This document shows, one piece after another, positions 40,634 through 59,930 of a stretch of DNA of 64,000 nucleotides. The position numbers and the translations under genes were made by a program. Position 1 is the first letter of the stretch; every line of letters begins with the position of its first letter. The stretch is from Eledone cirrhosa. Taxonomy: Eukaryota. Under the pieces are notes generated by a model. It did no database searches. It was not told the DNA's origin and saw nothing but the letters and a program-made list of their open reading frames with translations. The stretch spans positions 89,466,001-89,530,000 of the forward strand of contig OZ024745.1 in assembly GCA_964016885.1 (NCBI GenBank). The letters run 5' to 3'.

Positions 40634-40730
40634 AATTTTCAGCAAACAGGGGAGATAAAGCTGACAGAGCTCTGTTTCGCACTTGTTGGTGCTTATCAAA
40701 GCTAACTACTCCGCCTGTTTGCTGAAAATT
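40634..40730 (-). ncRNA. Type I hammerhead, U3-A8 core, long helix I
   Basis: AGCU UUGAUAA GCAC-CAACAA-GUGC GAAA CAGAGCUCUG UC AGCU, extended by AAUUUUCAGCAAACAG/CUGUUUGCUGAAAAUU. Confidence 0.85.
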
Positions 40731-40975
40731 ATGAATGGTTGATTCTCATAGAATTCCAATAGCGTAAGGTCTTCGAAATGCTTTTAATTAAGCATACAGT
40801 GTATTGAAAAATACACTATATATACATTCATATATATATCGCTATTTCAGAGCACCAATTCTAATTTTCAATTTCTGCTTGACCGGCAACCGCTCTGTAT
40901 AATCAGTTCCTGATTATTACTGGAATTCTATAAGAATGAAACATTCATAATTTTCAGCAAAAAAGCGGAGTAGTT

Positions 40976-41020
40976 AGCTTTGATAAGCACCAAAAAGTGC
41001 GAAACAGGGCTCTGTCAGCT
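40976..41020 (+). ncRNA. Type I hammerhead, U3-A8 core (second copy)
   Basis: AGCU UUGAUAA GCAC-CAAAAA-GUGC GAAA CAGGGCUCUG UC AGCU. Confidence 0.85.
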
Positions 41021-41204
41021 TTATCTCCCCTGTTTACTGAAAATTGAAGTAAGTGAGAGTGTCACTACTCTAAAACAATAGCGTAAGGTCTTCGAAATGC
41101 TTTTAATTAAGCATACAGTGTATTGCAAAATACACTATATATATACATTCATATATATATTGCTATTTCAGAGCACCAATTCTAATTTTATATATATATA
41201 CATA

Positions 41205-42116
41205 TATTTCGTTTCTGAATTTGTTTAGCATGATTCCTTATCTGAAAACCTGTGTTGGAACCGATATTGTTATACTTTGGGAGGGTCATGTTGCCATAAG
41301 ATACACACGCACCAGTGATTTTACTTCAATTTATTATAAATTTCCGGTTGTATACACCTCTCTGTATAGACAGGAAATGCATAATCTGTAAGCTAAGCCC
41401 CCATATTAACTGTAAAACTAGAAACATAGTATATATAGCATAAGATGTACTGAGGGACAATGTAAAAATAATAATATGATGTACATAGGTGAGACAGCTC
41501 GTAGCATAGGAGAACGATTAAATGAACACTGGCGAGAACTCCAAGATAGAAAAGACTCATCAATACTCCACCAACATGATAAATTAGAACATAAGGGTAA
41601 ATTAGAGAACAGAGATAAAAATAGAATCTACACACACAAAAGACGCAATGTTTAGACAAATCACAGAGGCAATAAACATAAATGAACACCAATCAAAATC
41701 AAATAGAAAACATGATTGGAATAGCAACATCATAACTTATAAGTAAGGACAAAATAAAAAACACATACACATAGAACAAACAACCAACTAGTAACATGTG
41801 AATAAACAAATAAATGAACAAATAAAAACACACACAGACACCCGGATGTCAGACATGCGCAAACTAAGCACACAACACACACAAAAACAAGATGGCGTAG
41901 GACAGAACAAAGGAGAGGCACACAATAAAAATAAAGAAAATAATCCCAGACACTGAAGAGGTCACAGAATGTGTGACGAAAGAACTTTGACAATATATGA
42001 ACAACCATCCGGTCAGAAAACCAACCAACCAACCGGAAATTTATAATAAATTGAAGTAAAAACAACTGGTGTGTGTGATACTTATTGGCAACATGACCCT
42101 CCCAAAGTATAACAAT
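41205..42116 (+). mobile_element. Diverged PLE related to family A: inverted pseudo-LTR piece (41205-41370), then GIY-YIG remnant and pseudo-LTR
   Basis: YIGETARSIGER at about 41480. The 3' end matches family A termini. Hammerhead-like core at 41953-41989. Confidence 0.8.
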
Positions 42117-42543
42117 ATATATATATATATATATATATATATATATATATATTTAAGAAAAAGGATTAGGTAGGGTGTGAGGGAGGTAACTCTTGTAAAT
42201 GTTTGATAGGTATTTGTAAATGTTTGATTGTTCGTTCCAGTTTTAGTTTAGTCCGAAATTTACTGCATTAAGTAGAGGTTGGAATTTGTTAATGAAATAC
42301 GTTTCCTTATTGGTACGCTGGATGAAAGTAGCGTTGTCTATAAATTTGTAAATGTAAATGGGGAAAATTTTAAAGTTTGGATATTGGTTTATTTTTTAAA
42401 ATAACAGATTAAAGTTTAAGCAAAGAATCGCTGCGTTCACCATTAAAGGGATCTTCTGAAACTAAAATAAATAAATCTGTGAACGCAGAAGTAAATATTT
42501 CGAAAAACGTTACAACCGAAGGAACACTGGAAGACGATACTTT

Positions 42544-57094: not shown

Positions 57095-57726
57095 TACTAT
57101 AAAGTATGTCCATAGAATCATTTGATAATATATATACACCATTTCCTCTCCCAATTAGCATAATTAACCACACAAAAAATCAATTAGACCAGGCTATCAG
57201 ATTAAAAGGCACCTATGAAGAAACAGTAGATAAATAAACAACAGCAATCTCCTCGCGGCCAACCGCCATAAAATATTTATCCAACATTTCAACAGCACGT
57301 GGAAATCGATTAAATATACCGTCAACCATACACAATTAGGTATAAAATTAAAGTTAGAAGAAATGCTCCTACACATACCAGGATACACATACCTCGAGTT
57401 TCGTACGCCTTTTGATATATCCTATTAAGGATAAAATCTCGAGCTTCGAACTCAGCAGGAGACAAACTCGTTAGAACAGAATATTTTAAAAAGTGGTCCC
57501 CGCCAGTCACAAATTCAAAATGGCTAAGAATTGTGACGTGGCAGTGGTCAAGTCAGGAAGAATGTGATTGATTGCTTACGGCGAGTGGGTTGGTTGCTAG
57601 AAAGCGCAGCCCAATATTGCCCAAATTGCATCTCAAACTTTTGGGAGATTATTAAATATAAAGATTTACATATACAATGGTGTATATATATTATCAAATG
57701 ATTCTATGGACATACTTTATAGTATA
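57095..57726. mobile_element. (TA)n-inserted repeat with about 50-bp inverted segments; related copy at about 40170-40480
   Basis: 57095-57143 is the reverse complement of 57676-57726; the interior is homologous to 40230-40350. Confidence 0.7.
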
Positions 57727-57872
57727 TTGCTATGATTATTAATTCTTCATTGAGCCACATCTTGAATGGTTGCCAAAACACATATATATCTGTGACTTTG
57801 TCTAGTTTGTGTATATGTAAATCTTTGTATATATATATATATATATATAATGTATAAAATCAATACAATATT

Positions 57873-57950
57873 ATTACCTCATTACCAGAGGTTTCCCGAA
57901 TAAGGCGAATACGAAATAAACGACTTCATTCATTCGTCAGACGAGGCAAT
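57873..57950 (-). ncRNA. Type I hammerhead in the PLE family B 3' UTR (mutated mirror copy at 63429-63506 on plus)
   Basis: AUUGCCUCGU CUGACGA A UGAAUGA...UUAUUCG G GAAA CCUCUGG UA AUGAGGUAAU; 10-bp helix I. Confidence 0.85.
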
Positions 57951-58779
57951 ATAAAACATGGGCAAATACTTAGAAAAACACATCAAGAAAATCAAAAAAA
58001 TATATAGATAAATGAAATAGAAATTGAAATATATAAAAATCTATCAAGAAAAATAGTTAGGTGTGTGTATGTGTATGTATATACGCTCATAGATGTGCAT
58101 ATATGTATATGTGCACGTGTAAATGTATGGTTAGAAAGTGTGCGTAATTATAAAAATTTAGGGTAAATGTATCTATATGTCTGTATTATGCAGACGGAAA
58201 TGGTTACTTCGTAAAAATAAGAAAATAAAGTCGCGCGCATAAAAACGCCTGGACACTCGTACATTTAGATGCGGAAAGAAAGGAGATGAAGAGAGTATAA
58301 TAAATAAAAGAAAAGTATCTATTACGATATATTTATAAAAATATAGTAACGATAAATTAGAAAGACAAGATAGAAAGAAAAAATTAAAGAAAACAAAAAA
58401 AGCGGGGGTACATACATACACAGACACGCGTGTCTCACAAAAGAAATGTAAAAATAATTATGCTTATATACACACGCGCGCTTACACTTCCATACGTTCG
58501 ATACGTACATACACACACACACACACACACACATACTTATACTCGCGCATGCCCATGTATGAAACTGGGTAAGTAACAAAAGAGGGAAGGGGGGGGGGAG
58601 AAGAAAAAATAAAAAATAAAAAAGAACAAACAAAAAAATATAAAACCGAAATGTCAAAAACGCGGATATAAAGACACTTACACATACGCATAATATACAC
58701 ACACGCACACACACAAACACCAGTACACACACGCATACATACACGTACATATATATATATATATATATATATATATATA

Positions 58780-59930
58780 TTATGAAGAGAGAAGAAACAT
58801 TTAGATATAATTAGTAATAAAATGCATCATACCTAAACTGTTCCTAAATTCCTCGACTACGTAGTTTCGTGGCATAAACAAAAACAATATATCAAAGATA
58901 TAGAGTCCTTGCGAGGTCTGCCGACTTATCAAGAGGATACCTCATTTTACTAGTCTCAAGAACGCGTCTACACGACGTGAGAAAGAATCCCAAAAGGCGG
59001 AGGGGGAGACAGTCACGCGATATAACGGTCGATATAACGGCAGACCTCGCAAGGACTCTATATCTTTGATATATTGTTTTTGTTTATGCCACGAAACTAC
59101 GTAGTCGAGGAATTTAGGAACAGTTTAGGTATGATGCATTTTATTACTAATTATATCTAAATGTTTCTTCTCTCTTCATAATGTATTTTTAACTCTGATA
59201 CTGGTTCAGTCTGGTTCAAACTGAATTGGTCTGTCCCAGTCATTCATCGGTGAAGTTGGCACCCTTCACTCACAGTTGGGTGCGGATGCATTCATGTATA
59301 TATGTGTGTGTCCGCATGTATCTGTGTGTTTCTAAATATATTAATAACTCCCTCTGGTCGAGCAATCTTTGAAGTGTGGGGACAACTGGAAAGCTTCCAT
59401 TACTCATACTTCTCGCCTTCTTCACTACCTCTTCTACGGCCTCGATATGAATACCCCCTCCGCCTCCGTGGTATTTTCTTCGTGGTTATAAGAGGCTTAG
59501 CTCTGTTTCTCGACCGTTATATCGCGTGACTGTCTCCCCCTCCGCCTTTTGGGATTCTTTCTCACGTCGTGTAGACGCGTTCTTGAGACTAGTAAAATGA
59601 GGTATCCTCTTGATAAGTCGGCAGACCTCGCAAGGACTCTATATCTTTGATATATTGTTTTTGTTTATGCCACGAAACTACGTAGTCGAGGAATTTAGGA
59701 ACAGTTTAGGTATGATGCATTTTATTACTAATTATATCTAAATGTTTCTTCTCTCTTCATAATGTATTTTTAACTCTGATACTGGTTCAGTCTGGTTCAA
59801 ACTGAATTGGTCTGTCCCAGTCATTCATTGAGCAACATCGGTGAAGTTGGCACCCTTAACTCACAGTTGGGTGCGGATGCATTCATGTATATATGTGTGT
59901 GTCCGCATGTATCTGTGTGTTTCTAAATAT
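58780..59930. mobile_element. ORF-less HHR element nested in the PLE arm: inverted partial unit, partial unit, full unit of about 585 nt
   Basis: GAAA at 59093 and 59674 (period 581); full HHRs at 58850-58937(-) and 59605-59692(+); absent from the mirror arm. Confidence 0.88.

Follow-up and report, generated by a model that had tools for sequence, protein, structure and literature searches.

In the active fold of the hammerhead ribozyme, core positions C3 and G8 form a Watson–Crick pair. The stretch of DNA analyzed here, 64,000 nucleotides (nt) of Eledone cirrhosa (assembly GCA_964016885.1, contig OZ024745.1, positions 89,466,001 to 89,530,000; hereafter the window), contains type I hammerheads of Penelope-like elements (PLEs) and PLE-type non-autonomous repeats in which both positions are exchanged to give a U3-A8 pair. 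A sequence-only reading of the window, which called U3-A8 a rare functional substitute, had drawn attention to this core, which was already published. Perreault et al. 2011 (PMC3088659) described the same covariation in several natural hammerheads, and in Cercyon PLEs of Schistosoma mansoni (PMC4209133) it also occurs with type I topology and a palindromic helix III. In its accessible part PMC3088659 draws no link to retroelements and describes no repeated origin in one genome, in contrast to the present case. The Cercyon PLEs (PMC4209133) are alike in the pseudo-long terminal repeat (pseudo-LTR) location of the motif, in opposite-strand pairs 100–700 bp apart, and in being missed by a CUGANGA descriptor. 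They differ in abundance, with about 1,300 mostly single matches to a dedicated descriptor as against more than 24,000 copies here, and in affiliation, the families here being Neptune/Nematis-type, Hydra-type, and non-coding tandem repeats. The additional base after A9, called conserved in the minimal motifs of PMC4209133, is absent from the U3-A8 motifs here.

The Neptune/Nematis and Hydra clades of PLEs (PMC8557442) share linker motifs, (TA)n targets, and inverted or tandem structure with the families described below. Canonical hammerheads are given there as universal in Hydra and other PLEs with a C-terminal endonuclease (EN); our families G and H are Hydra-type with U3-A8. Our families A and B resemble metazoan non-LTR retrozymes (PMC7229834; bioRxiv 10.64898/2026.07.22.740005) in that their tandem units are non-coding, low in GC, and equipped with one type I hammerhead each, family A (320 nt) lying inside the published size range of ~170–400 nt and family B (591 nt) above it. 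A and B differ from published retrozymes in their U3-A8 core, in PLE-like (TA)n targets, and in the frequency of inverted 5′ arms, likewise a PLE trait. Their tandem arrays with the inverted arm have the layout of PLE insertions in PMC8557442 and of non-LTR retrozymes in PMC7229834 and the bioRxiv study. In the literature covered, which lacked most subscription papers and supplements, the term U3-A8 came up only in PMC3088659 and PMC4209133, and no prior report of U3-A8 retrozymes or of a repeated origin in one genome was found; no mention of hammerheads was seen in the published Octopus repeat paper. What is new here is a probable repeated origin of U3-A8, three times or more, within one animal genome, which now contains over 24,000 copies of it.

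U3-A8 hammerheads in the window and the genome

The window has a GC content of 35% and abundant microsatellites, in an assembly of 3.0 Gb. A structure-based scan with positions 3 and 8 left free located six complete UUGAUAA type I hammerheads where the sequence-only reading had placed them, two in a repeat described as 319 nt long (family A) and four in one described as 581 nt long (family B). The family A insertion (40544..41185), delimited by self-alignment and sequence, consists of a non-coding unit of ~320 nt in inverted and partial-tandem arrangement and begins at a (TA)n tract. Its hammerheads lie at 40659..40703 on the minus strand (core 40699-40693, predicted cut after C 40663) and at 40976..41020 on the plus strand (core 40980-40986, predicted cut after C 41016). 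The first family B insertion (44662..45610) has inverted arms within (TA)n, with hammerheads at 44738..44827 on the minus strand (core 44822-44816, long helix II, palindromic helix III) and 45291..45380 on the plus strand (core 45296-45302, predicted cut after C 45375). The second (58776..59930) has inverted and partial-tandem arms and occupies a (TA)n tract inside a Hydra-type PLE 3′ repeat; its hammerheads are at 58850..58937 on the minus strand (core 58932-58926) and 59605..59692 on the plus strand (core 59610-59616, predicted cut after C 59687), and a fifth family B copy, at 59038, is cut and has no core. The four complete family B hammerheads stand as first described, but not the unit length, which is 591 nt elsewhere in the genome; the spacing of 581 nt in the window arose because one partial copy has a deletion of 10 nt. 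In all six motifs helix I has 4–5 bp beside the core, helix II starts with G10.1-C11.1, GAAA and a GUC site are present, and helix III is palindromic or near-palindromic.

The UUGAAAA motif of family C (50709..50746, minus strand, core 50742-50736) was also present as reported, but its helix II is not intact as had been claimed: one pair is lost from this short helix, and helix I beside the core is broken. This decayed copy belongs to the 5′-truncated 3′ repeat of an autonomous Neptune/Nematis-type PLE, intact copies of which have a CCUU/AAGG helix I and a 4-bp helix II. Beyond the interval 40634..59692 that had been surveyed, the window holds a fourth kind of U3-A8 motif, the minimal hammerhead of family D (34850..34885, minus strand, core 34883-34877), with the 2-bp helix I typical of the D families. 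Four C3-G8 hammerheads lie within that interval, with cores at 41953 and 43532 on the plus strand and 44171 and 57940 on the minus strand.

As regards assignment to the type I hammerheads, the boxes NUGANNA, GAAA, and UH and three helices with helix I open are present (the copy at 50742 having a broken helix I), and a Watson–Crick 3-8 pair is present, fixed as U-A here and covarying as C-G in sister families. The Rfam gathering score is not reached: family A motifs match HH9 at 27.6 and 24.9 bits, below the gathering value of 52, and the Rfam hammerhead models gave no match to the family B or C motifs in the window. On the reversed sequence our stricter descriptor gave no matches and the looser one four, none of them U-A. 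Nucleotide likeness among A, B, and C is limited to short words, the top match between A and C being 30 nt at the core (E 0.002). The families are in this respect unrelated, as had been stated, but all are PLEs or PLE-type non-autonomous repeats.

U3-A8 is the state of whole families. With positions 3 and 8 free, the family B pattern has 6,067 matches in the genome, 6,042 of them U3-A8, and the family A pattern 318, with 91 U3-A8 and no C3-G8 among the first 100 listed. In family C, a count confined to variants at position 3 gave 66 copies with a base other than U (36 C, 17 G, and 13 A by hand count), all with A8. Mismatched 3-8 pairs are rare and do not rival U-A in frequency, and no variant at position 3 or 8 reached ≥5% in four sequencing runs. 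This family-wide fixation rejects decay of single copies as the source of U3-A8, in agreement with the sequence-only reading. Family B carries 792 variants at two permissive sites versus 25 at positions 3 and 8, a contrast that is suggestive only because one of the two sites is a CpG.

Genome-wide, a generic pattern combining U3-A8 with a short, palindromic helix III had 18,115 matches (8 in the control), whereas the otherwise equal pattern with C3-G8 found 13 (140 in the control). Searches restricted to CUGANGA do miss these motifs, as predicted, although the contrast of 18,115 with 13 is overstated because C3-G8 families that have one more base behind A9 escape the pattern. In a fairer sample of 20 blindly chosen 10-kb stretches (200 kb), 10 of the 17 intact cores belonging to the 16 nameable families were U3-A8. 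The U3-A8 motifs missed here by CUGANGA-only surveys exceed 24,000 in number, and retrozymes are undercounted by such surveys.

Element families and the origins of the core

The family C hammerhead lies downstream of an open reading frame (ORF) encoding reverse transcriptase (RT) and EN in 13 of 19 loci fetched by RT-region similarity (L026 and L045 being the first), and that of family D2 is linked to an RT-EN ORF in L092, L098, and L234. Many intact 777-aa D2 ORFs exist at 98–99% identity among the 150 best matches, and the D2 ORF is ~57% identical to that of C. Both show a DKG motif and a CX4CxxC linker followed by a C-terminal GIY-YIG domain, and the single ORF with RT, a CX2-5CxxC linker, C-terminal GIY-YIG, and pseudo-LTR hammerhead place C and D2 with the Neptune/Nematis type. 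Families G and H carry U3-A8 on ORFs with a Hydra-type CxCX5C linker, family G flanking its ORF on either side and family H being linked to its ORF in L220/L236 and L069/L237. The CxCX5C linker was read by eye in G, H, and also F, together with DKT in H, DKA in G, and a (TA)n target; Pfam gave no match. Both assignments follow the motif definitions of PMC8557442, our tree being one of sequences other than named reference PLE proteins. An initial placement of G, H, and F as Poseidon-type PLEs was dropped, the linker motif definitions indicating Hydra. That the elements described here could be Naiad, their U3-A8 motifs being the "missing" hammerheads of that group, was rejected because every linked ORF has a C-terminal endonuclease.

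For an outside comparison we used 80 metagenome loci with related ORFs, of which 57 had no descriptor match; the remaining 23 comprised 21 with C3-G8 and two with U3-A8 (L153 and L190). Close relatives at 44–52% identity (L132, L135, and L140) have C3-G8 as read by eye, as do the nearest relatives of C and D2 outside this genome. A quick-search RT tree of 34 rows requires five core changes, at least four of them forced by well-supported branches. A careful search on 19 of the rows, without 15 others that were near-redundant or unlabelled, gave the same two figures; L137 had no usable single-frame piece. In the careful tree C and D2 are joined (100/100) and placed among C3-G8 relatives. Approximately unbiased tests rejected a single clade of the four U3-A8 ORFs of this genome (p = 1.1e-5) and of all six U3-A8 ORFs (6e-51), and weakly rejected a clade of G and H (0.015).

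Family A provides a comparison that is independent of ORFs. Two sister families have C3-G8: A1, 71% identical, at six or more loci and including eight near-identical tandem units, and A2, 81% identical, at one locus (L067). The three align through the hammerhead, A matching A2 base by base with an AGCU helix I in both. Around the window copy at 40976..41020 a long extension of helix I (about 40950-41046) shows compensatory changes between the sister families. Of 30 pairs compared, 17 are altered on both sides, the 3-8 pair included, and 93% of cells in the alignment are paired versus 37–47% in slid controls; the alignment has six rows from three lineages, and the structure was drawn from the same rows. 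Judged by these compensatory pair changes, the family A hammerhead structure is under selection. At 10.1-11.1 the sister families (L020:278-590 and L067:2665-3029) have U-U or U-A. U-U occurs at this place also in L132, L135, and L140, from other organisms, and is a recurrent non-canonical base of helix II.

The RT trees and the C3-G8 sisters of A together reject one inherited origin for all U3-A8 families, and therefore indicate at least three origins in the genome (C/D2, G/H once or twice, and A). This bears out the claim that the double change recurs in lineages not sharing it by descent. On this comparative evidence three or more independent origins within the genome are likely, with family B unplaced.

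The non-coding units of families A and B are arranged in tandem within (TA)n, and the 5′ arm is inverted. Arrays in L003-L006, L018, and at genome positions consist of units with one type I hammerhead each, as in non-LTR retrozymes, with up to eight tandem units of A (L018). Against a retrozyme criterion of ~170–450 nt, family A at 315–322 nt falls inside and family B at 591 nt is longer. No pieces of PLE ORFs were attached to A or B in the 22 loci examined, and among the fetched loci neither a C3-G8 sister nor a coding parent of B was found, only a subfamily at 81–83% identity that is also U3-A8. None of the sequencing runs listed is recorded as RNA. In two runs of unknown kind a single closed contig of 591 nt was present, but tandem DNA would produce this too, and it does not count as evidence for a circle. 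Family B insertions (window 58776-59930 and L001-L008) favor two end points within the unit, which lie about 80 and 240 nt beyond the predicted cut site and are each TA-like. It is possible that these are two reverse-transcription start sites resembling the PLE "tail".

Predicted cleavage and explanations of the switch

The reason for the presence of hammerheads in PLEs is not settled in the literature (PMC8557442, PMC11167929). Recently active elements with near-matched sisters differing at 3-8 make the relation of core strength to cleavage, circles, and transposition measurable on natural alleles. Minimal PLE hammerheads cleave weakly and only as dimers (PMC4209133). In the one PLE studied in PMC11167929 cleavage is protein-assisted and depends on the 3-8 pair, but insertion in vitro can do without it, uncut RNA being the main substrate. 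By analogy with these systems, cleavage here is predicted to be slow, to be aided by dimer formation or protein, and to yield unit-length RNA; the U3-A8 motifs are expected to have kept the capacity to cut element RNA, probably slowly and as dimers. In read-through RNA of tandem units, two hammerheads would fold together via the palindromic helix III, and the double hammerhead would cut the RNA to unit length. For A and B, closure of the unit RNA into circles of 320 and 591 nt would likely follow. A PLE reverse transcriptase, acting in cis or in trans, would copy the RNA, and the copy would enter (TA)n with its 5′ arm inverted. Co-folding of two copies gave a double hammerhead with intermolecular helix III for both A and B, and for the circular B unit the folding energy is -173 kcal/mol versus -134 ± 6 kcal/mol for 20 shuffles.

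We favor, at a probability of roughly 55%, the reading that these are type I hammerheads of PLEs and their non-coding derivatives, that C3-G8 became U3-A8 at least three times with predicted cleavage kept, and that mutation together with selection on pairing made the switch. C>U and G>A are common transitions. Founder elements would have crossed to U3-A8 by these two changes through a U3-G8 wobble intermediate, huge element populations and a weak need for cleavage would have permitted the switch, and purifying selection would afterwards have maintained the 3-8 pair, adaptive tuning being unnecessary. Of 19 loci measured for AT content, the three richest include both outside U3-A8 loci, a post hoc observation that favors mutation pressure with purifying selection on pairing. 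The sequence-only reading had taken recurrence to point to selection for tuned cleavage; recurrence is no proof of this, as tuning and compensatory drift with biased mutation look alike in sequence data. An equally good or better fit comes from C>T/G>A mutation pressure that produces compensatory changes while purifying selection maintains the pairing.

Several points weigh against the favored reading. Within this genome the AT content of U3-A8 elements does not exceed that of C3-G8 elements (ORF GC 0.37–0.47 versus 0.34–0.63; family A 0.34 versus 0.34 and 0.38 in its sisters), and composition alone therefore does not account for the choice of families that switched. Part of the fixation seen in genomic copies is due to their young age and to founder effects. 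In the trees family F is a long branch with less than half of the columns, E is also long-branched, and B is not tied to any parent. Cleavage is a prediction for every family, and in minimum free energy (MFE) folds of monomers the B and C hammerheads are no better than shuffles (z -0.5 to -1.1), the family A MFE structure departs from the active fold at helix III, and a diverged circular A unit reaches z of about -1.2. In one type III hammerhead (PMC9901934) the G-C swap alone rescued activity, other double mutants of the region having low activity, whereas PMC3088659 states that U3-A8 has been shown active in vitro; U3-A8 activity would therefore be context-dependent.

Instead of tolerated drift, separate lineages may have converged on slower or dimer-only cleavage that leaves enough uncut tandem RNA for reverse transcription, which we regard as somewhat unlikely. 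The count of at least three origins in one genome versus two of 23 outside PLE loci with a descriptor match is in accord with such tuning, as is the share of U3-A8 (10 of 17) in the blindly chosen sequence. All U3-A8 families here have G10.1-C11.1 immediately after A9 versus U-U or U-A in the C3-G8 sisters of A, a possible balance of strong and weak pairs; however, C3-G8 is also found with a direct G10.1-C11.1 pair (family J, L136, and L137). Uncut RNA as chief substrate in vitro (PMC11167929) and the weakness of U3-A8 in one construct (PMC9901934) would fit, but C3-G8 families are also active or recent here, among them A1 with its near-identical tandem units and E, F, J, M, and N. A pressure at the level of the host that favors U3-A8, under which Neptune-type, Hydra-type, and non-coding retrozyme lineages converged and U3-A8 became the commonest core, seems unlikely; if true, it would be convergent evolution of a ribozyme active site, and natural matched pairs such as A and its 81%-identical C3-G8 sister would allow a direct test of what cleavage rate does in the transposition of PLEs.

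It is improbable that the motif no longer cuts and is retained as a folded signal for the PLE protein, U3-A8 being tolerated since catalysis is irrelevant. The low activity of minimal PLE hammerheads (PMC4209133), an anole element with no RNA ends at the site and dispensable cleavage (PMC11167929), and the helix I of just 2 bp in the D families could be read this way, but the remaining catalytic positions and the UH site are preserved in every family, the change re-creates exactly the 3-8 pair of the active fold, and natural U3-A8 covariation has been described as activity-preserving (PMC3088659). Very improbable is a single origin of U3-A8 followed by template switching that carried the ribozyme module from one family to another. 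Coexisting PLE RNAs share (TA)n sites as insertion targets, where nesting is frequent, and a minimal layout is common to all U3-A8 cores here; yet helices I, II, and III are wholly different among A, B, C, G, and H, and A shares its alignment through the hammerhead, with the same helix I, with C3-G8 sister A2. In the A lineage, the one for which this was seen, the hammerhead region follows the relationships of the flanking sequence.

Neighboring elements and additional families

The C3-G8 families of the same genome include E, F, J, M, and N plus the sisters of A. Family F is represented in the window by a broken Hydra-type PLE (57845..63534, minus strand) with RT and endonuclease pieces at 60453-61849 and a C3-G8 hammerhead (core 57940-57934). 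Pieces of PLE families E and E2 lie at 3597-5764, 18078-19302, 41372-42118, and 43162-44595, with C3-G8 cores, an additional base after A9, and a helix I of just 2 bp. Family J (L031:7739 and L066:1953) is a non-coding repeat with a canonical C3-G8 core, a 7-bp helix I, and no additional base after A9. A lone U3-A8 hammerhead with core UUGACAA, a long helix II, and a 6-bp helix I (L213:318) is not assigned to any of the named families.

Inverted, 5′-truncated ends of family H, the Hydra-type PLE with a U3-A8 hammerhead, occur at 6123-6252 of the window; such short ends are very frequent in the fetched loci and mostly terminate within helix II. Self-alignment indicates another inverted and tandem repeat of ~330–420 nt in (TA)n at 24784-26145. 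Four PLE RT-endonuclease proteins (P0024, P0026, P0045, and P0049) are filed under bacterial symbiont names, which is probably due to host contamination of the assemblies.

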